The translations under genes and the position numbers were made by a program. The notes beneath the pieces are model-generated. The model worked only from the letters and a program-made list of their open reading frames with translations. It was not told the DNA's origin and made no database searches. Below are positions 2,329 through 44,581 of a stretch of 64,000 bases of DNA, piece by piece; position 1 is the first letter of the stretch; every line of letters starts with the position of its first letter. Origin of the DNA: Escherichia phage vB_EcoM_WFbE185; the sequence record MK373778.1. One strand, given 5' to 3'.

Positions 2329-2598
2329 TTATTTCTGTGCAATTTTGATGTAAGTTTTCAAAATATTTTGCCAATTAGGCATACCTTCTTGGACATATGC
2401 CGGAGAACCATCTTTGTTTTTGAATGATGCAAGTTTATCAGTGGCCCAATAACCTTTAGCTCGAGCTTCAGAATCAACTTTCATCCATACTTTGTTGAAG
2501 GCATTACCATTAACTTTTGCACCATATTTTTCTACTAACTTAACTGCTTCAGCTTCCAGAACTTTTAAAGTATCTCGTAAGAAACGTGCTTTAGTCAT
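2329..2598 (-). CDS. hypothetical protein, 89 aa, at the 23/24 junction where T4 carries segD
   Basis: ORF with GGAG RBS and its own early promoter (2629-2658); no GIY-YIG motif. Confidence 0.5.
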   Translation of the reverse strand: MTKARFLRDTLKVLEAEAVKLVEKYGAKVNGNAFNKVWMKVDSEARAKGYWATDKLASFKNKDGSPAYVQEGMPNWQNILKTYIKIAQK

Positions 2599-2628
2599 TT
2601 TGTTTACTCCTCTGTAGTTGATAAGTCT

Positions 2629-2658
2629 ATAGTATCACATATCAAATACGTTGTAAAC
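2629..2658 (-). promoter_or_regulatory. early promoter (GTTTAC-N18-TACTAT) for ORF 2329-2598
   Basis: Minus strand GTTTAC then 18 nt then TACTAT, about 30 nt upstream of the ATG. Confidence 0.5.
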
Positions 2659-2664
2659 AATCTT

Positions 2665-2672
2665 TATAAATA
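2665..2672 (+). promoter_or_regulatory. late promoter (TATAAATA) for gene 24
   Basis: Exact TATAAATA 27 nt upstream of the gp24 ATG. Confidence 0.65.
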
Positions 2673-2699
2673 ATCTATATCACATAAGGAAAAAATGCA

Positions 2700-3983
2700 A
2701 TGAGTAAAATCCAAAAATTATTGCGTGAATCTACAACGTCTACTAGCAACTCAATTGGTCGCCCAAATCTCGTTGCTTTGACTCGCGCTACGACTAAATT
2801 AATATATTCTGACATTGTAGCAACACAAAGAACTAATCAACCTGTTGCTGCTTTTTATGGTATCAAATATCTTAACCCAGATAACGAATTCACATTTAAA
2901 ACCGGTGCTACTTATGCTGGCGAAGTTGGATATGTAGACCGAGAAAAAATTACCGAGCTCACAGAAGAATCAAAAGTCACACTAAATAAAGGCGATTTTT
3001 TCAAATATAATAATATCGTTTATAAAGTATTAGAAGATACACCGTTTGCAGATATTCAGGAAAGTGATCTAGAATTAGCTCTTCAGATTGCGGTCGTTCA
3101 TTTAAAGGTACGGTTGTTTTCAGATGCAGCGGTAACAAGCAAATTTGAAAGCTCTGGTAGCGAAATTTCTGATGCAAGATTCCAGATTAATAAATGGCAA
3201 ACCGCTGTTAAATCTCGTAAACTTAAAACTGGCCTAACGGTTGAATTAGCGCAAGATTTGGAAGCGAATGGATTTGATGCCCCTAACTTCTTAGAAGATT
3301 TACTTGCTACTGAAATGGCTGATGAAATTAATAAAGATATTCTTCAGTCTTTAATTACTGTATCGAAACGTTATAAAGTTACTGGAATTACTGACACCGG
3401 ATTTATTGACTTGAGCTATGCGTCTGCTCCAGAAGCAGGTCGTTCATTATATCGAATGGTGTGTGAAATGGTATCACACATTCAAAAAGAGTCAACTTAT
3501 ACCGCAACGTTTTGCGTAGCTTCAGCTCGTGCAGCCGCTATTCTTGCTGCTTCAGGTTGGTTAAAACATAAGCCGGAAGATGATAAGTATCTTTCACAAA
3601 ATGCTTATGGATTCTTGGCAAATGGATTACCTCTTTACTGCGATACTAACAGCCCGTTAGATTATGTTATTGTGGGTGTTGTAGAAAATATCGGCGAAAA
3701 AGAAATTGTAGGGTCCATCTTTTATGCTCCATACACTGAAGGAGTAGATTTAGATGACCCGGAACATGTTGGTGCATTTAAAGTTGTAGTTGATCCAGAA
3801 AGCTTGCAACCGTCTATCGGATTATTGGTTAGATATGCTTTATCAGCAAATCCTTACACAGTAGCAAAAGACGAAAAAGAAGCGAGAATAATTGATGGTG
3901 GGGACATGGATAAAATGGCAGGACGTTCAGACTTGTCTGTTTTACTCGGTGTTAAATTGCCTAAAATTATTATAGATGAATAA
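2700..3983 (+). CDS. 24: head vertex protein gp24
   Basis: 427 aa; position after gp23; late promoter TATAAATA 27 nt upstream; AAGGA RBS. Confidence 0.9.
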   Translation: MSKIQKLLRESTTSTSNSIGRPNLVALTRATTKLIYSDIVATQRTNQPVAAFYGIKYLNPDNEFTFKTGATYAGEVGYVDREKITELTEESKVTLNKGDFFKYNNIVYKVLEDTPFADIQESDLELALQIAVVHLKVRLFSDAAVTSKFESSGSEISDARFQINKWQTAVKSRKLKTGLTVELAQDLEANGFDAPNFLEDLLATEMADEINKDILQSLITVSKRYKVTGITDTGFIDLSYASAPEAGRSLYRMVCEMVSHIQKESTYTATFCVASARAAAILAASGWLKHKPEDDKYLSQNAYGFLANGLPLYCDTNSPLDYVIVGVVENIGEKEIVGSIFYAPYTEGVDLDDPEHVGAFKVVVDPESLQPSIGLLVRYALSANPYTVAKDEKEARIIDGGDMDKMAGRSDLSVLLGVKLPKIIIDE

Positions 3984-7773: not shown

Positions 7774-7786
7774 GATATTTCCTCAT

Positions 7787-7794
7787 TATAAATA
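7787..7794 (+). promoter_or_regulatory. late promoter (TATAAATA) for uvsW
   Basis: Exact TATAAATA 29 nt upstream of the uvsW ATG in the divergent inh/uvsW intergenic region. Confidence 0.65.
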
Positions 7795-7823
7795 TAACTA
7801 TATTTATTACATGGTAATTTGAC

Positions 7824-27249: not shown

Positions 27250-27820
27250 AAAAGTTTCGGATTTGTTCCCAATTCAGAGAACGAAGATTATTACGAGAGT
27301 ACTGAATTACTTCAATACCGGCTTGTTTTAGAATGTCTGCCCAATTTTCAGGAGATCTGTCATATAATTCTGCGTATACAACCTTTTTAATACCTGACTG
27401 TGTAATAGCTTTAGTGCAATCAGGACACGGAGAAAGCGTCGTATATAACGTAGCACCTTCAATAGAATTACCTTTACGAGCTGCAAACAAAATTGCATTC
27501 AATTCAGCATGGATTTCATTATTAGCAGACCATGCACTATGAGCCGCTCGATGTTCTTTAGCCAAAACAAAATTATCCACCCGTCCAAATGCTGTAGTGC
27601 CTTCTTTATGCCCAGCAACGATGACCGGGCTTGGTTTATTCTTCAACCAACCGTTTTCGGATGCATGTTCGCAACAGTTTGTACCACCTGAAGGAGAGCC
27701 ATTATAACCTGTAGAAATAATGCGTCCATCTTTTTCAATGACGGCACCAACTTTCCATGAACAACATTTTGATTCTTGAGAAATCAAATAAGCAATTTGA
27801 AGATATGTGCTAGCTTTCAT
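27239..27820 (-). CDS. cd: dCMP deaminase
   Basis: 193 aa; zinc motifs HAE...PCxxC (HAELNAILFAARKG, SPCPDC); matches T4 Cd. Confidence 0.92.
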   Translation of the reverse strand: MKASTYLQIAYLISQESKCCSWKVGAVIEKDGRIISTGYNGSPSGGTNCCEHASENGWLKNKPSPVIVAGHKEGTTAFGRVDNFVLAKEHRAAHSAWSANNEIHAELNAILFAARKGNSIEGATLYTTLSPCPDCTKAITQSGIKKVVYAELYDRSPENWADILKQAGIEVIQYSRNNLRSLNWEQIRNFCGE

Positions 27821-28812
27821 TATTGAACCTTATTAATATAAGTTAACAGCTCTTTAGTTTGTTCCCAACTGATGCACGCATCGGTAACGGAAACGCCATA
27901 GGACATATTATCAGAAATTTTTTGATTTCCTTCATGTAGGAATGATTCTATCATAATTCCTTTGACCAAATCATTAGCTGCTAAATTTTTACCAATACCA
28001 ATTTGATTGCTATAATGCCCAGCAGCGTTTGCATGGCTACAGTCAACCATTACATAATGATTCAGACCTACTGCACTTGCTTTGTTAGAAGCTTCTTGAA
28101 TATCAGAAGAATGATAGTTCGGGCCGTTGGTCCCGCCACGCAATACGATATGCGTATTCTGATTACCTTCAGCTTCAACAATGCCTACAGTACCATCGAC
28201 GTCCATACCCATATACCGATGAGGCCAGGCGGCACTATACATCGCGTCTGTAGCTACTTTAATAGAACCATTGGTTGCGTTCTTGAAGCCTACGCACATC
28301 GGTAGACCTGAAGCAATTTCACGATGTGTCTGACTTTCAGTCGTACGGGCGCCAATAGCAACCCATGAGAAAATACCAGAAAGATACTTAATCGTGAATG
28401 GGTCTAATACTTCAGTTGCTAATGGAAGTCCCATACGTAGAAGTTTACGACACAATGTTCGTGCAACTATAAGACCGTGGTTCATATCAAAACTTCCGTC
28501 AAGATATGGATCATTTACAAGACCTTTCCAACCTACGGTAGTTCGAGGCTTTTCAAAATAAACGCGCATCACTAACAGAACATTAGGAAGACGAGTTTGA
28601 AGTTCAGCCAGACGTTTGCCGTATTCAACAGCAGCAATAGGGTCATGAATTGAACAAGGACCTACAACAATAAGTTTGCGTGGGTCTTCACCGTTCATAA
28701 TCGAATTAACTTGTTCGCGATGAGAAGCCACTTGTGATGCGTAAGCTTCCGACAAAGGAATAATCTCAGCCAGTTCTTTTGGAGAAATAAGTTTTCCGAC
28801 GACAGGTAACAT
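27820..28812 (-). CDS. 3-deoxy-D-arabino-heptulosonate-7-phosphate (DAHP) synthase, class I-alpha (AroF/AroG/AroH-like)
   Basis: 330 aa; signature blocks LIVVGPCSIHD, RVYFEKPRTTVGWKGL, IGARTTESQTHRE, VGFKN, VMVDCSH, ESFLHEGNQ, YGVSVTDACISWE; AAGGA RBS, ATG start. Confidence 0.9.
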   Translation of the reverse strand: MLPVVGKLISPKELAEIIPLSEAYASQVASHREQVNSIMNGEDPRKLIVVGPCSIHDPIAAVEYGKRLAELQTRLPNVLLVMRVYFEKPRTTVGWKGLVNDPYLDGSFDMNHGLIVARTLCRKLLRMGLPLATEVLDPFTIKYLSGIFSWVAIGARTTESQTHREIASGLPMCVGFKNATNGSIKVATDAMYSAAWPHRYMGMDVDGTVGIVEAEGNQNTHIVLRGGTNGPNYHSSDIQEASNKASAVGLNHYVMVDCSHANAAGHYSNQIGIGKNLAANDLVKGIMIESFLHEGNQKISDNMSYGVSVTDACISWEQTKELLTYINKVQ

Positions 28813-29512: not shown

Positions 29513-29737
29513 TCAGTGCACAGTATTTACTTTAACTCGAACAACAAATCGCTCGGTTGGTTCACCTACAGGAACAAACTCTACATGATATTCACCTTTG
29601 TAACGAGTATTCAGATCATTACGAATTCCTGCGAGTTTGTTGATTAATGTAGGACTCATATTAAGTCCCACTAGTTTACGAAGCATTTTGTATGCTTCAT
29701 CTTCGATTTCATGATGTTTATCGTACATAGTTTTCAT
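29513..29737 (-). CDS. hypothetical protein (cd-pseT interval)
   Basis: 74-aa ORF. Confidence 0.45.
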   Translation of the reverse strand: MKTMYDKHHEIEDEAYKMLRKLVGLNMSPTLINKLAGIRNDLNTRYKGEYHVEFVPVGEPTERFVVRVKVNTVH

Positions 29738-29909
29738 TTAACCATTCAATTGCCTGGTCGACGTTATCAAATATACCACCGTCCAAACGTTCTTCATGCT
29801 CATAGTCCAGCACATCAATACCGAACTGTCCATTTACTAAAGGCCAGGCTACAAACAAATATTCTTTATGCTGTTCGATTGTACGAAAAATCTTTTCGAT
29901 GTTATTCAT
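29718..29909 (-). CDS. hypothetical small acidic protein (cd-pseT interval)
   Basis: 63-aa ORF overlapping both neighbours. Confidence 0.4.
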   Translation of the reverse strand: MNNIEKIFRTIEQHKEYLFVAWPLVNGQFGIDVLDYEHEERLDGGIFDNVDQAIEWLNENYVR

Positions 29910-30624
29910 AAGTTTTCCATTTTCTACCTAGTTGCCAGTCCGGGCTGTTTAATCTAGGATCGTTTATATCGGTGGTAGAAGACTTTTTACCTGAAATATG
30001 GATTAACCATTTTCTAGATTTAGCTGCTTTAGAATAATTTTCTTTAGCCTTATCACTTCTAACCTTGCCTTTATTGGATTTGGATATTTTATTACCCCAT
30101 TCAATAATAGACTCTTCACTCATAAAATCTTTAACATTCTTACCATACATAGGATTATTTTCGCCTTTAAACGTATTACCATTTTTAAGACGGGTTTCTT
30201 TAGATTTAATCCCATGACCTGGCAATTTCTTACCTTTAATCCAAGGAACCACACCATTATTAAATCGTTCTTTTTGCGATTTAGAAATTTTTGCAGATGT
30301 TTCTGGGCTTGAATTAACATTAATACGATTTTCATTAATATAATCCCAGCCTCCTTCTCCGCCAGGTTTCAAATTGTAATTAGTATCCAGTTTTATAAAT
30401 TCTTTAGTTACTAATTTGGCTTCTAAATCATATGCTTCTTGTTTAGTTTCAAATATTTTTATGATTTCTTTATTAAAAGAATCTTTACCATATTTTGATT
30501 CAGCATTTTTAAAAGCTGTACCGGAACCTAAATAAGAATCATTTTCTTTTAAGGTCTTATGAACCCCTATATAAATTTTGTTGTTAACCAAACATGTGGT
30601 TTTATACACAGTGTATTTTTCCAT
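29902..30624 (-). CDS. free-standing GIY-YIG homing endonuclease (Seg-like)
   Basis: GIY-YIG variant motif VYKTTCLVNNKIYIGVH at N-terminus; Lys-rich C-terminal DNA-binding region; ATG MEKYTVYK with GAGGTGA RBS (track start is GTG). Confidence 0.8.
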   Translation of the reverse strand: MEKYTVYKTTCLVNNKIYIGVHKTLKENDSYLGSGTAFKNAESKYGKDSFNKEIIKIFETKQEAYDLEAKLVTKEFIKLDTNYNLKPGGEGGWDYINENRINVNSSPETSAKISKSQKERFNNGVVPWIKGKKLPGHGIKSKETRLKNGNTFKGENNPMYGKNVKDFMSEESIIEWGNKISKSNKGKVRSDKAKENYSKAAKSRKWLIHISGKKSSTTDINDPRLNSPDWQLGRKWKTYE

Positions 30625-30671
30625 TAGAATCACCTCTATAGATATTTATATTCATCTATGGAGATTTCTAA

Positions 30672-31758
<1,087 letters not shown>

Positions 31759-35114: not shown

Positions 35115-35143
35115 AATAAAGTGGGACCGAAGTCCCGTCCTTA
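35115..35143 (-). promoter_or_regulatory. split Shine-Dalgarno-like hairpin upstream of denA
   Basis: Minus RNA: UAAGGAC-GGGAC-UUCG-GUCCC-ACUUUAUU-AUG; AAGGA overlaps the nrdB stop; no SD between hairpin and AUG. Confidence 0.45.
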
Positions 35144-36319
35144 GAAATATTTTTTGTATGAATTGATTACATTTTGGTCTACATCATTATCAATTTGTGC
35201 GACAAGATAAGAACTGATTTCAACTTCCTGAGGAGCTGCTTGAACTAAATCAGAGTTCAGATATTCACGAATCCAAGGATACGGATGCTTGGTCGGAGCA
35301 TCAGTAATTGGACATGGCAAACCACACTGTTTCATACGAGACACAGTCAAGTAATCAACAAAAGCACACATACCCTGCGTATTGATACCTGGACATGTAC
35401 CATCTTTAAAGAGGTGTGCAGCCCATTCCTTCTCTTGACTATTTACTTCCATAAAAATGTCAACTGCTTCTTGTTCACATTCTTTAGCAGTTTGAACCCA
35501 CTCATCACCGTCAGTACCAGATTGAAGTTGACGGATAATGTACTGAGTACCCTTGAGATGGAGTTGTTCGTCACGAGCAATGAACTTCATAATCTTTGCA
35601 TTGCCTTCCATAATTTCCATATTTTTATGGAAGTTAAAGGTACATGCAAATGATACGTAAAAACGAATAGCTTCCAAGGCGTTAATTACATGAAGGCAAA
35701 GATAAAGAGATTTCATTAGCTCACGCTTCCAATATGTCTCATGCTCAATAGCATCTTCAATAACGTCTTCGTCTGCATTAATTTCTTTTTGGTATTCGAT
35801 ATCGGCTTTAGCGTTTTCCCAATAACGAGTTTTAACCAGAACATCATCGTAATATTTACCTATTGATTCAGCTCGTTTCATGATTGCTTCGTCTAATACA
35901 ATCTCATCAAATACTTTGGATGGATCGGTATAAAGATTTCGCATAATATGAGTGTACGAACGAGAGTGAATAGTTTCACTGAATGTCCATGTTGCAACCC
36001 ACGTATCTAATGAAGGGTCGGAAATCAGTGCCATAAGTACCGCAGATGGGGCCCTGCCTTGGATAGAATCTAATAATGATTGATACTTAAGATTGTTTGT
36101 AAAGATGTCCTGTTGGAACTGAGGAAGCTTATTGAACTGCGCAGAGTCCAACATCAAGTTTACCTCTTCTGGGCGCCAGAAAAACGACAATTGCTTTTCA
36201 ATAAGTTCTTCAAAAACTTTATGTCGCTGAATATCATAACGTGCTAGGCCAAGACCAGAACCAAAGAACATTGGTTCATTCAAAACATCGACTTGTTGTG
36301 TGTTAAAAACTGTACTCAT
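35141..36319 (-). CDS. nrdB: ribonucleotide reductase small subunit (intron-less)
   Basis: 392 aa contiguous; di-iron ligand region (EAIRFY... HLKGTQY); T4 synteny; no intron or intron-encoded endonuclease. Confidence 0.9.
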   Translation of the reverse strand: MSTVFNTQQVDVLNEPMFFGSGLGLARYDIQRHKVFEELIEKQLSFFWRPEEVNLMLDSAQFNKLPQFQQDIFTNNLKYQSLLDSIQGRAPSAVLMALISDPSLDTWVATWTFSETIHSRSYTHIMRNLYTDPSKVFDEIVLDEAIMKRAESIGKYYDDVLVKTRYWENAKADIEYQKEINADEDVIEDAIEHETYWKRELMKSLYLCLHVINALEAIRFYVSFACTFNFHKNMEIMEGNAKIMKFIARDEQLHLKGTQYIIRQLQSGTDGDEWVQTAKECEQEAVDIFMEVNSQEKEWAAHLFKDGTCPGINTQGMCAFVDYLTVSRMKQCGLPCPITDAPTKHPYPWIREYLNSDLVQAAPQEVEISSYLVAQIDNDVDQNVINSYKKYF

Positions 36320-39393: not shown

Positions 39394-40254
39394 TTATACC
39401 GCCATTTTAGCTTTGATAACTGGATGTGATTCGTAATTTTTAAGAACGAAATCAGAATGTGTCATCGTTCCGGTAACCCAGTCCATTTGGATTTTTGTAG
39501 GCCAATTCTCAAAATTACTAGGCCAATCAATTTTAAGTTCACACAGTTCTTTAGGCTCACGACGTAAAACTTCTTTGCATTGCTCTATGTGGTTGCTGTA
39601 GATATGCGTATTGCCGCCTGAGAACACTAAATCACCAGGGATAAGATTACACATCTTAGCCACAATATGCGTCAAGGCAGCGTACGAGGCAATGTTGAAC
39701 GGCAAACCCAAGAAAACATCTACACTGCGTTGATACCATTGCAAATCAAGATGACCATTACGCACATTGAACTGATAGAACATGTGGCAAGGAGGAAGAG
39801 CCATTTGATTTATTTCGGCCGGATTCCAGGCAGAAACAATTTGACGGCGATCAGTTGGTAATTTTTTAATACGGTCGATTGTTTCAACTAATTGGTCCAC
39901 ACCACCGAAATCACGCCATTGTTTACCATATATAGGACCAAGTTCACCGCTATGATAACCAAGGTCTTTTGCCTGATTTTCGTAATTATCGTCCCAAATA
40001 GTTTTACCTTGAATAAGACTACCATGAGTACGAATACGTAAATCATTAACATTGGTAGAACCAGACATGAACCACAGTAACTCGGCAATACAAGCTTTCC
40101 ATGCTAATTTCTTAGTTGTTACCGCAGGGAATCCTTTAGTTAGATCCCAACGTAATTTAGTTCCGAACAGGGCAATAGTGCCGGTACCTGTACGGTCGTC
40201 TGTTTCGTAGCCATTTTCTAGGATATCATTAATCAGGTATTGGTATTGTTTCAT
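39394..40254 (-). CDS. td: thymidylate synthase (intron-less)
   Basis: 286 aa contiguous; active-site PPCH and TGTGT motifs; matches T4 Td exon product without the group I intron. Confidence 0.95.
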   Translation of the reverse strand: MKQYQYLINDILENGYETDDRTGTGTIALFGTKLRWDLTKGFPAVTTKKLAWKACIAELLWFMSGSTNVNDLRIRTHGSLIQGKTIWDDNYENQAKDLGYHSGELGPIYGKQWRDFGGVDQLVETIDRIKKLPTDRRQIVSAWNPAEINQMALPPCHMFYQFNVRNGHLDLQWYQRSVDVFLGLPFNIASYAALTHIVAKMCNLIPGDLVFSGGNTHIYSNHIEQCKEVLRREPKELCELKIDWPSNFENWPTKIQMDWVTGTMTHSDFVLKNYESHPVIKAKMAV

Positions 40255-42799: not shown

Positions 42800-42869
42800 T
42801 TTATTTGCCTTTATTTAGATTATTAATTAAATTTTACAGTTGGTTGCTACGACACTTATACCTCGTAGC
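42800..42869 (-). promoter_or_regulatory. gene 32 translational operator: 5'-leader pseudoknot plus A/U-rich unstructured tract
   Basis: Leader GCUACGAGGUAUAAGUGUCGUAGCAACCAACUGUAAAAUUUAAUUAAUAAUCUAAAUAAAGGCAAAUAAA-AUG closely resembles the T4 gene 32 autoregulatory leader (stem GCUACGA/UCGUAGC). Confidence 0.6.
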
Positions 42870-42879
42870 TGGTATGATT

Positions 42880-42887
42880 TATTTATA
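42880..42887 (-). promoter_or_regulatory. late promoter (TATAAATA) for gene 32
   Basis: Exact minus-strand TATAAATA 81 nt upstream of the gene 32 ATG, upstream of the operator pseudoknot. Confidence 0.55.
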
Positions 42888-42916
42888 AAGTAATTTTAAC
42901 ACACAAGAAATAAAGC

Positions 42917-43570
42917 TTAATACTTACATGATTTGATTGTTTCTATGAACAATTTCTTAGCAGCATTTCTATCGATTTGAAGTATTTTTCGATATGCCTT
43001 TAATTTGGTAGAATAATTTTGCCAGACTAAATTGTCAGTGAGTTCGTCGTGCTTATCTATAATATTCAAAAACGAGTCTAACAATAAGAAAGTCTCAAAT
43101 GAAATTATATTGCTTTGTAGCAATTTGAATATGTAGCTCGACTGAACGTTGTTATTATAATCAAATATCTCTTGAAGCGCACTAACTTCAACTTTCTTAC
43201 TGAAATAGTAGATGTTACGTACGTCTTCAGCAAACGTCTCTTTAGCTTGTTTGAGACGTCCAATATATTCCCTATAGAAAACTAATGCATCAGCGTCTGA
43301 TATCTCACCAATCCATGCGTCTTGGTTAGCAACTAAGTTGCTTATGAATATCAAGGTGAGTTCCTTCAATTTATATTTCTCTGCTAGTTTTTCAAAGAAA
43401 TATTTATCTCGGCGTTTTTGATACGCATTATCCGAAACACGCATGCACCAGTTATATTTGATTACGTCATACCGACCACCAAAGTGGTTTTTGCACATCA
43501 AGTATAGTTTATATACTGATTTACCGTTAATATAACGTTCTCCGTCAGGAGGCATGCGTATTTTAATCAT
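42917..43570 (-). CDS. 59: helicase loader gp59
   Basis: 217 aa as in T4; MIKIRMPPDGERYINGKSVYKLYLM... matches T4 gp59. Confidence 0.92.
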   Translation of the reverse strand: MIKIRMPPDGERYINGKSVYKLYLMCKNHFGGRYDVIKYNWCMRVSDNAYQKRRDKYFFEKLAEKYKLKELTLIFISNLVANQDAWIGEISDADALVFYREYIGRLKQAKETFAEDVRNIYYFSKKVEVSALQEIFDYNNNVQSSYIFKLLQSNIISFETFLLLDSFLNIIDKHDELTDNLVWQNYSTKLKAYRKILQIDRNAAKKLFIETIKSCKY

Positions 43571-44246
43571 AGTTCCATCCAGGCCATTTTGAAGATTTAA
43601 GTCTATACGTAACTAGAGATGCAGAAATATTAAAAACATCTGAAACTTCTGTGCATGATGAGTATTTTATACCATCAATAATTATAGGTTTTTGTTTTTT
43701 AATAGTTCTTTCTTTAGAATGCGGCTTTGAATTTGCTATTCTAAGAGCTTCTTTGGTTGAATCAGGCATCGGCTTATTCGTTTTTCGCCCTTTTCGGACT
43801 TTACTCAAAGCTAATTTATGAGCTTCAGATAGTTTCCTACCCTTATTAGGGGATGGTATTTTTCTTTCTAATCTGGTTTTAGATACTTTAGCCTTAGTCT
43901 CTTCAGATCTAGGTTTCCCTATTTTAGAAAGTGAAATAGCCCTTTTAGCTTCATCACTTTGTTTTTTACCAGGGCCACCTTTACCACCTGGAACCAGGTT
44001 ATAAGTATCAGTTCGCAAAACAAAATCTTCATTAACCAATTCTGCTTCTTTTTTATAGGCGTCCTTGGCATTATCATATTCATAAAGAACTTCAGTATAA
44101 AAATTTTTTAGCCCGTATTTAGCTTTGGCCGCTAATATAGCGCGACCAGACCCAATATACCAATCTTTCTCTTTATGTTTTTTGTGTACACCTATATAAA
44201 TTTTACCATTTATTTTATTGGTAGTTTTATACACAACGTATTTCAT
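43563..44246 (-). CDS. free-standing GIY-YIG homing endonuclease (Seg-like), inserted between genes 33 and 59
   Basis: 227 aa; GIY-YIG variant motif VVYKTTNKINGKIYIGVH; Lys/Arg-rich C-terminal region; overlaps the gp59 start by 8 nt. Confidence 0.8.
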   Translation of the reverse strand: MKYVVYKTTNKINGKIYIGVHKKHKEKDWYIGSGRAILAAKAKYGLKNFYTEVLYEYDNAKDAYKKEAELVNEDFVLRTDTYNLVPGGKGGPGKKQSDEAKRAISLSKIGKPRSEETKAKVSKTRLERKIPSPNKGRKLSEAHKLALSKVRKGRKTNKPMPDSTKEALRIANSKPHSKERTIKKQKPIIIDGIKYSSCTEVSDVFNISASLVTYRLKSSKWPGWNYD

Positions 44247-44581
44247 AATAAGAAATCTAACGTATTAGTTTTTTCACCACGAGCAACTGACGGGCGAAGC
44301 ATGTTTTCGTCAATTGCTTCGCTTGTAATTTTTTCAACAATTCCTGTAGGAATAAATTTAGCAAATTGTGTTTCTGGAATAGAATTTTCTTCCAAGAAAG
44401 CAGTTGTTGCTTCTAAATAAGACATACCAAATTGTTCAACCATGGATTCGATAATGAATCCGTTTTCTTGTCGGTCAAGCAATTTAGCGATATCATCTTT
44501 ATCGTGTTTTACTGCTAATTCTTGTTCAGATAAACCGGCCTCATCAACCGGTTTAATATCACTTAGTGAAAACTGTGTCAT
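44243..44581 (-). CDS. 33: late-transcription co-activator gp33
   Basis: 112 aa; MTQFSLSDIKPVDEAGLSEQEL...TNTLDFLL matches T4 gp33. Confidence 0.92.
   Translation of the reverse strand: MTQFSLSDIKPVDEAGLSEQELAVKHDKDDIAKLLDRQENGFIIESMVEQFGMSYLEATTAFLEENSIPETQFAKFIPTGIVEKITSEAIDENMLRPSVARGEKTNTLDFLL

Follow-up and report, generated by a model that had tools for sequence, protein, structure and literature searches.

Two Seg-type GIY-YIG genes inserted at precise junctions of a Mosigvirus genome are probably free-standing homing endonuclease cassettes

The stretch of DNA analysed here (the window) comprises 64,000 nucleotides of Escherichia phage vB_EcoM_WFbE185 (MK373778.1), a T-even phage segment reaching from gene 23 to past gene 37, and carries two genes designated HEG1 and HEG2 (for homing endonuclease gene, the identity that we argue is probable). 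Both open reading frames (ORFs) were found on the minus strand, where a first-pass annotation made from the letters of the sequence had placed two Seg-like genes. Their products are exact matches to GenBank QBQ77731.1 (HEG1) and QBQ77753.1 (HEG2) of the same phage, which the source record names “putative intron endonuclease” and “putative group I intron endonuclease”, respectively; a paper on phage vB_EcoM_WFbE185 never mentions endonucleases (PMC6563267). The window is 96–98% identical to many Mosigvirus (RB69/JS09-like) genomes, with no identical record in the phage collection searched, and by sequence the phage is an RB69-like T-even member of Mosigvirus and not T4. Comparison with T4 is therefore a comparison between genera, and the relevant one for both genes is with other Mosigvirus genomes.

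29902-30624, minus strand: HEG1, Seg-type GIY-YIG endonuclease gene, 240 amino acids (ORF, Pfam, PHROG, blastp, alignment)
43563-44246, minus strand: HEG2, SegD-like GIY-YIG endonuclease gene, 227 amino acids (ORF, Pfam, PHROG, blastp)

The two proteins open with the N-terminal GIY-YIG variant motif that the first-pass annotation had read as VYKTT...NxKIYIGVH (YTVYKTT...NNKIYIGVH in HEG1, YVVYKTT...NGKIYIGVH in HEG2), and their C-terminal parts are lysine-rich, as it had also noted, and basic (17–18.5% lysine, isoelectric point 10.0–10.4). For HEG1, the ORF lister chose as start an upstream GTG at 30633 that lies within the Shine-Dalgarno sequence; the annotated homologue in phage PNJ-9 starts MEKYTVYK, as does HEG1 from its ATG. 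In HEG1, a catalytic domain (residues 1-92) is followed by NUMOD3 repeats and then by a C-terminal module of the SegB/SegE-like form WLxxxG...DPRLxxxxWQxGRKWK. Pfam identified PF01541 GIY-YIG (30.3 bits, curated cut-off 22.6) and NUMOD3 in this protein, with no Pfam match to the last 43 residues even at E <= 10; it also matches PHROG 314 “homing endonuclease” (E 1e-43), and its best blastp match among T4 proteins is SegB (44% over 131 amino acids, E 5e-32). Among Protein Data Bank structures, the I-TevI catalytic domain best matches the AlphaFold2 model of HEG1 (mean predicted local distance difference test score 82; probability 1.0, template modelling score 0.63 on the target), and the C-terminal half of the model has no confident match there. 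HEG2 shares the DNA-binding NUMOD3 module and adds I-TevI_DNA-bd, a C-terminal helix-turn-helix (Pfam, 6e-11); it matches PHROG 314 with E 7e-55, is closest to T4 SegD (blastp, 35% over the full length, E 8e-38), and aligns with I-TevI from end to end (28% over 252 columns, E 1.5e-9). With T4 comparison proteins drawn from NC_000866, blastp E-values of both proteins against SegA-E lie between 8e-38 and 2e-15, while SegG has no blastp match to either and no tblastn match in the window. For both proteins, these family matches are far beyond what chance would be expected to give.

Catalytic residues were examined in an alignment of HEG1 and HEG2 with T4 SegA-G and I-TevI/II, with column conservation for HEG1 taken across 34 homologues. 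The first motif tyrosine (I-TevI Y6) corresponds to Y7 of HEG1 (TVY) and Y6 of HEG2 (VVY), in a column nearly invariant with the T4 Seg and Tev proteins and invariant in the 34 homologues, and the second motif, Tyr-x-Gly (I-TevI Y17, G19), to Y18-I-G20 and Y17-I-G19 in invariant columns. The metal-binding glutamate (I-TevI E75) is present as E68 and E67, and the conserved asparagine (I-TevI N90) as N84 and N83. The Seg-specific set YIG-x-H, D-x-Y-x-GSG, KYG, E and YN..GG.GG is complete in both. HEG1 and HEG2 are intact genes, and their products are clear members of the Seg family of GIY-YIG proteins.

The two genes occupy sites that T4 does not use, as the first-pass annotation had claimed: in T4, cd.5 directly follows pseT, and segG lies on the other side of gene 59. 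Their surroundings, with neighbouring genes checked by Pfam (gp23, gp24, UvsW, PNKP, NrdB, NrdA, Td, gp32, gp59 and gp33), are as follows.

29718-29909, minus strand: cd.4-like ORF, 63 amino acids, whose start overlaps the HEG1 stop by 8 nt
29880-30672, minus strand: foreign tract of 793 bp replacing 30 bp of the empty site (comparison with the endonuclease-free Mosigvirus UKE1)
30672-31571, minus strand: pseT, polynucleotide kinase/3'-phosphatase (PNKP; Pfam, HAD_PNKP profile to the last residue)
42917-43570, minus strand: gene 59, helicase loader, downstream of HEG2 (Pfam)
44243-44581, minus strand: gene 33, late-transcription co-activator, upstream of HEG2 (Pfam)

The foreign tract around HEG1 begins at the pseT stop codon, changed from TAA to TAG, and ends 10 codons into the cd.4-like gene. 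Where the site is empty, pseT and the gene after it share a stop/start overlap (TAATG); in the window, the TAG is followed by TTAGAAATCTCC, by HEG1 (separated from pseT by a 47-nt spacer), and by a new N-terminus of the cd.4-like ORF, whose first 10 codons are cassette-borne and read MNNIEKIFRT in place of MKRLYEVIEA. The 250 bp that follow the tract match many endonuclease-free phages at 100% identity, and the final 250 bp of the window pseT match them at 98.4% at best. The last 150–250 bp of pseT hold at least 4 private differences from each endonuclease-free record. These were considered as candidate carrier-specific “immunity” substitutions; they are scattered, and other carriers lack them.

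The junctions of HEG2 are equally sharp. The gene 33 stop and the HEG2 ATG share the sequence ATGA, and at the 3' end of HEG2 8 nt are common to it and the start of gene 59. Where the endonuclease is missing, as in the Mosigvirus phages mobillu and RB69, genes 33 and 59 meet directly in a single ATGA overlap, and the cassette in the window lies exactly between two such overlaps. HEG2 takes over the initiation region that serves gene 59 in the empty allele, and supplies a new one for gene 59. Its upstream region shows neither a hairpin (z = -0.7) nor a late-promoter box, and by sequence HEG2 is a promoter-less cassette, as are T4 segC, segF and segG (PMC2988022). The first codons of HEG2, ATGAAATACG (44234-44246, minus strand), resemble the gene 59 start, ATGATTAAAATACG (43557-43570, minus strand), so that the gene is bounded by a short imperfect direct repeat, TATGA...AAATACG, which may be a chance resemblance or a trace of insertion.

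Both genes are patchily distributed among close relatives. HEG1 is absent from about 147 of about 148 Mosigvirus records with shared flanks, the sole carrier being PNJ-9, and among 50,697 phage records close copies were found only in PNJ-9 (Mosigvirus, 89% DNA identity) and P896 (Gaprivervirus, 87%). PNJ-9 and P896 share with the window the first 30 nt of the replaced cd.4 start, and their foreign sequence is about 100 bp longer; such differing crossover points in the cd.4-like gene fit what variable repair-tract end-points would give. The synonymous divergence (dS) between HEG1 and the PNJ-9 copy is about 0.5, in backbones that are 97–100% identical. Compared with PNJ-9 and P896 (copies L001, PNJ-9, 2501-3223, and L002, 2505-3224), HEG1 is moreover a mosaic, with 97–99% DNA identity in the 5' half encoding the catalytic part (proportion of synonymous differences, pS, 0.11) and 75–90% in the 3' half encoding the DNA-binding part (pS 0.53), which suggests recombination inside the endonuclease gene, i.e. 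an exchange at the level of domains. Since the HEG1 allele is mosaic and far more diverged than the backbone, the copies would derive from separate imports from diverged donors; this indicates that the HEG1 alleles are older than the backbones and were acquired separately in the window phage and in PNJ-9.

HEG2 is more common: of about 152 Mosigvirus records whose flanks match, 28 carry it, and RB69 is among those lacking it. DNA identity of the other alleles to HEG2 ranges from 93% to 99.4%; the UGJNEcP2 copy, for instance, is 93% identical to that in the window, with flanks at 97–99%, and against the empty allele of mobillu the flanks of HEG2 show 99.4–99.7% identity. Winklervirus CHI14 and Dhakavirus AnYang have related genes at this 59/33 site. 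The copy in AV116 (OR352946.1 51844-52528; protein P0146) is 1 nt longer and annotated as a 138-amino-acid hypothetical protein, and is apparently frameshifted and decaying. The ratio of non-synonymous to synonymous divergence (dN/dS) is 0.09–0.12 for HEG1 and 0.09 for HEG2, so that at about 0.1 both genes are under purifying selection. The first-pass annotation had described the pattern as a signature of homing-endonuclease turnover, and the presence or absence of the genes at exact junctions, the variable end-points and the frameshifted AV116 copy all fit such turnover, by gain and decay. AnYang also carries a 205-amino-acid ORF (ORF170, L037 286-903) in the 32/59 slot, the T4 segG position, so that gene 59 of this phage has an occupied slot on either side.

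The pseT 3' end next to HEG1 is itself variable. Two alleles of its last third, about 70% identical to each other, exist in Mosigvirus (sequences compared include PNJ-9, L001 3271-3620, and phage SF, L041), and the rarer, Tequatrovirus-like one occurs with the endonuclease in PNJ-9 and without it in SF, TH58 and VIPECOMC06. The 3' third of PNJ-9 pseT is 66–76% identical to that of the window. We considered it as a homing co-conversion tract and rejected this, as the endonuclease-free Mosigvirus SF has the same allele; a related allele is found in Tequatrovirus PP01 too, which points to ordinary mosaicism, and the region was not used as evidence. By these comparisons, the pseT 3' third is a local recombination hotspot adjoining the endonuclease site.

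The short leader between pseT and HEG1 holds two predicted regulatory features.

30623-30672, minus strand: predicted RNA hairpin upstream of HEG1 (fold -14.7 kcal/mol, z = -3.5)
30643-30650, minus strand: TATAAATA, a perfect match to the T4 late-promoter consensus in the hairpin loop, 19 nt upstream of the HEG1 ATG

As the 5' arm of the hairpin, TTAGAAATCTCC (30660-30671) is predicted to pair with the Shine-Dalgarno sequence GAGGTGA (30630-30636), reaching the AUG. Hairpins were evaluated as single-sequence folds with shuffling controls: the Shine-Dalgarno sequence or the AUG is occluded in all ten lineage members folded, with z between -1.9 and -7.6 for the other nine, and the arm sequences differ among members. 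Further copies of TATAAATA in the window closely precede late genes, 24 and 34 among them. In nine of the ten members, HEG1 included, the loop contains or adjoins this box or a close variant of it (AATAAATA, CTAAATA); the member designated L033 has only TATATAAA in its place. A scan for sigma-70 promoters and terminators around HEG1 stayed at background level. A hairpin with an internal late promoter is the design described for I-TevI, I-TevII, I-TevIII, T4 segB and Aeh1 mobE, in which read-through transcripts are translationally silent and late transcripts starting inside the hairpin are translatable (PMC2988022, PMC2330249), and by analogy the HEG1 leader matches this I-TevI/segB paradigm.

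Directly after the PNKP stop, every HEG1-type cassette carries a block TTAGAAATC(T/G/A)CC that empty sites lack (compared in the window at 30660-30671 and in L001, L002, L007, L008, L032, L033, L035, L042 and L043), replaced by TTAAAAATCTCC or TTAAAACACTCC in the most distant members of the lineage. The TTAGAAATCTCC block, which bears a loose likeness to the SegB recognition core GGTTCRANTCC, was considered as an operator or half target site. In ten of ten members it is the 5' arm that pairs with the Shine-Dalgarno/AUG region; that pairing accounts for most of its conservation, and it may in addition act as an operator or a retained half-site.

Homologues of HEG1 keep to the same genomic position over a wide range of divergence. 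Its members in Mosigvirus, Gaprivervirus, Karamvirus (KMB20) and Gualtarvirus (Morganella phage MP1) immediately follow pseT/PNKP, the KMB20 and MP1 homologues being 67–72% identical in DNA, and comparable copies in Proteus, Providencia and Klebsiella phages are known from sequence match alone. A protein search returned a graded family, from which six metagenomic members with 62% down to 37% identity were examined; all six lie 46–56 bp downstream of a HAD_PNKP-domain gene, and in four of these contexts the neighbour is a stand-alone phosphatase of 146–157 amino acids on otherwise unrelated large phage contigs. Overall, HEG1 homologues were found 46–56 bp downstream of a PNKP/HAD-phosphatase gene in 11 of 11 contexts, at identities from 91% to 37%, and in HEG1-type carriers the PNKP C-terminus ends ...QV..G(D/N)F-stop. 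Scans of IMG/VR with HEG1 and HEG2 found no relative closer than 47% identity and no context that was informative. The most economical reading of this distribution is that the homing site of the HEG1 lineage consists of the conserved PNKP coding end and the junction, which makes the pseT 3' end the probable homing-site region. The gene that would be so targeted, pseT, is the tRNA-repair counter-defence gene of the phage.

Taken together, these observations make it likely that HEG1 and HEG2 encode free-standing homing endonucleases of the Seg type of GIY-YIG enzymes and are selfish cassettes passed among T-even phages that infect the same cell. On present comparisons, each comes from a lineage that keeps to one site, the pseT/PNKP 3' end for HEG1 and the gene 33/59 junction for HEG2. 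By analogy with the T4 Seg enzymes, the C-terminal NUMOD3 and helix-turn-helix-type modules would bind a long degenerate site in an endonuclease-free allele, the N-terminal GIY-YIG domain would make a double-strand break, and repair from the endonuclease-carrying genome would copy in the cassette together with a variable length of flank. On early and middle read-through transcripts from pseT, the hairpin would hide the ribosome-binding site of HEG1, and the late promoter in its loop would give late transcripts that lack the 5' arm and are translatable. HEG2, with no signals of its own, would adopt the translationally coupled start of the empty allele of gene 59. Since the sequences on either side of both cassettes hardly differ from those of endonuclease-free relatives, the phage would most likely be immune to its own enzymes because each insertion interrupts the recognition site at its junction. 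Cleavage, target position, late expression, homing and the marker exclusion that the first-pass annotation had predicted are inferred; for biased inheritance with co-conversion of flanks, the variable crossover end-points and the alleles older than their backbones give indirect comparative support.

With somewhat more confidence than doubt, we further propose that HEG1 stands for a Seg lineage, so far uncharacterised, that has remained at the final codons of PNKP/HAD-phosphatase genes, from T-even genera to unrelated large phages. Its members would share the 46–56-nt leader with a hairpin occluding the ribosome-binding site and, usually, a late-promoter-like box; they would recognise the ...QV..G(D/N)F-stop end and the junction, drive exchange of pseT alleles by co-conversion, and act through a GIY-YIG active site without arginine.

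Several observations weigh against the homing interpretation of the two genes. Nothing in either protein aligns with I-TevI R27, the catalytic arginine of helix 1, and residues 1-92 of HEG1 hold no arginine at all, so that its catalytic constellation is putative; the first-pass annotation had named the catalytic arginine and glutamate as the residues to find by alignment, and while the glutamate is present in both proteins, the arginine is absent in HEG1, which taken literally fails that check. The gap spans 9 residues at FEKRWKRHF, the R27 site, in all T4 Seg proteins as well as in both window proteins, and the T4 SegC catalytic domain likewise lacks arginine; Table 1 of PMC2988022 lists SegA, B, C, E, F and G as active, so the missing arginine is a trait of the Seg subfamily and not a sign of inactivity. 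An invariant histidine, H22, together with K16 and Y31, is conserved across the 34 HEG1 homologues, and these residues are candidates for the missing role. HEG2 in turn has no PF01541 match at E <= 0.1, and its only GIY-YIG-type match, SegE_GIY-YIG (20.1 bits), falls below the curated cut-off of 25, so that its assignment rests on similarity to SegD, I-TevI and PHROG 314. RNAalifold on a MAFFT alignment of six leaders returned no consensus structure, with loops that could not be aligned, and conservation of the hairpin therefore rests on the single-sequence folds. The target of HEG1 cannot be read from the sequence, the private pseT substitutions being scattered and not common to carriers; and nuclease cleavage and homing are attributed to both genes by homology.

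A dN/dS of about 0.1 would fit a domesticated function equally well, as it reveals selection on the protein with its cause unspecified, and the genes could then be immobile descendants of homing endonucleases that have come to serve otherwise, for instance by binding DNA, regulating neighbouring genes, or cutting competitor or host DNA. Retention of this kind would be favoured at HEG2 by the dependence of gene 59 on translation signals inside the cassette, and the lack of the canonical catalytic arginine in HEG1 points the same way, except that active T4 Seg enzymes share that gap (PMC2988022). We nevertheless consider domestication unlikely: the genes are scattered among near-identical genomes (about 1 of 148 for HEG1, 28 of 152 for HEG2), their alleles are far more diverged than the backbones, and their occurrence at the same site across genera, with a decaying copy in AV116, is what is expected of mobile selfish elements. 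Ancestral presence in Mosigvirus followed by repeated loss, which would make the pattern one of deletion and not of gain by homing, is more doubtful still. Both lineages are indeed old and broadly distributed, with the same sites occupied in several genera, and degeneration does occur, as in AV116; yet the empty sites are precise and identical (TAATG or ATGA) in well over 100 genomes, an outcome that repeated deletions would not yield, and the divergence and different crossovers of the HEG1 copies in their nearly identical backbones require import from diverged donors. That the ORFs are intron-encoded, as the source-record names have it and as the full-length similarity of HEG2 to I-TevI might suggest, has almost no probability, since Rfam found no group I intron in the window and both ORFs stand between complete, separately translated genes, with overlaps of 4–8 nt or the 47-nt spacer. 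Neither locus has an intron, and the “intron endonuclease” names are carry-overs from homology.

As probable free-standing homing endonuclease genes, HEG1 and HEG2 resemble different T4 enzymes in part. HEG1 is like SegB in its Seg-type catalytic motifs, NUMOD3 and C-terminal W..G...DP..W..GRK.K module, and in an upstream hairpin occluding the ribosome-binding site (for segB, PMC2330249, PMC2988022); unlike SegB, it follows pseT and not the tRNA gene cluster (PMC2330249), its central region cannot be aligned, and its loop holds a perfect TATAAATA where the segB promoter is merely predicted. HEG2 is like SegD over its full length, and like I-TevI in having NUMOD3 and the I-TevI C-terminal DNA-binding domain. 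In contrast to segD, which lies antisense between genes 23 and 24, it sits between genes 33 and 59 in the orientation of its neighbours and translationally coupled to them; in contrast to I-TevI, it is free-standing and not in the td intron, and Seg-type motifs replace the R27 helix. With segG it shares the nature of a promoter-less free-standing cassette in the 32-59-33 block (PMC2988022), on the opposite side of gene 59; T4 SegG cuts gene 32 of T2 and causes marker exclusion. Closer counterparts are annotated elsewhere, namely the uncharacterised “Seg-like/SegD homing endonucleases” of other Straboviridae: those of PNJ-9, P896, KMB20 and MP1 for HEG1 (same site and lineage; protein identity 92% with PNJ-9 and 88% with P896), and those of SSE1, PaulHMueller, phi25-307 and CHI14 for HEG2 (same site and lineage; DNA identity up to 99.4%). 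Apart from the mosaic HEG1 allele, the window genes show no substantive difference from these.

The kind of element is thus textbook, and the exact sequences are already public and annotated by homology. Literature searches found no account of how the HEG1 lineage keeps to the PNKP 3' end or of the leader design that its members share, and this might be the only mildly new part: the association across distant phages yields a testable prediction of a new homing site, and suggests a lineage that tracks one conserved coding end. Two well-delimited cases, with exact junctions and empty alleles, are added to the free-standing endonucleases outside T4, which to our knowledge is the only phage whose enzymes of this kind have received detailed study. 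They also explain local breaks of synteny and identity around pseT and genes 33/59 in Mosigvirus genomes, and allow the “intron endonuclease” names of the source record to be corrected. The general picture is unchanged, since endonuclease turnover, control by hairpin and late promoter, and marker exclusion are established for T-even phages.

The sites used by T4 endonucleases and introns were examined in the window as well.

2277-2699, no strand: 23/24 gap (T4 segD slot), 423 bp, no seg gene
2329-2598, minus strand: 89-amino-acid ORF in the 23/24 gap, function not assigned (phrog_6003, E 3e-45)
7774-7823, no strand: inh/uvsW gap (T4 segE slot), 50 bp, unoccupied
35141-36319, minus strand: nrdB, uninterrupted, 392 amino acids (single ORF, Pfam profile in one stretch)
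39394-40254, minus strand: td, uninterrupted, 286 amino acids (whole Pfam profile 1-266 in one stretch)
42800-42916, no strand: 32/59 gap (T4 segG slot), 117 bp, unoccupied

The first-pass annotation had called the segD, segE and segG sites empty. This holds for segE and segG; the segD slot is free of seg genes but not strictly empty, as it holds the 89-amino-acid ORF, which is antisense like T4 segD but unrelated to any Seg protein. It had also taken td and nrdB to be intron-less, in agreement with their one-stretch Pfam matches and with an Rfam scan of the window, which returned no RNA family and no group I intron. The nrdB/nrdA gap (T4 mobE slot) measures 55 bp and contains no mobE, and tblastn of the window with 13 T4 proteins (SegA-G, I-TevI/II/III and MobB/C/E) matched only the HEG1 and HEG2 loci. 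The claimed absence of T4’s own endonucleases is thereby upheld, and such absence is expected of a different genus; T4 is a known outlier in homing endonuclease load (PMC2988022).

One further gene lies in the same region, between cd and the cd.x ORFs.

27820-28812, minus strand: DAHP synthase gene (phospho-2-dehydro-3-deoxyheptonate aldolase, AroG/AroF-like)

This enzyme, which T4 does not have, is encoded by an auxiliary metabolic gene typical of Mosigvirus.

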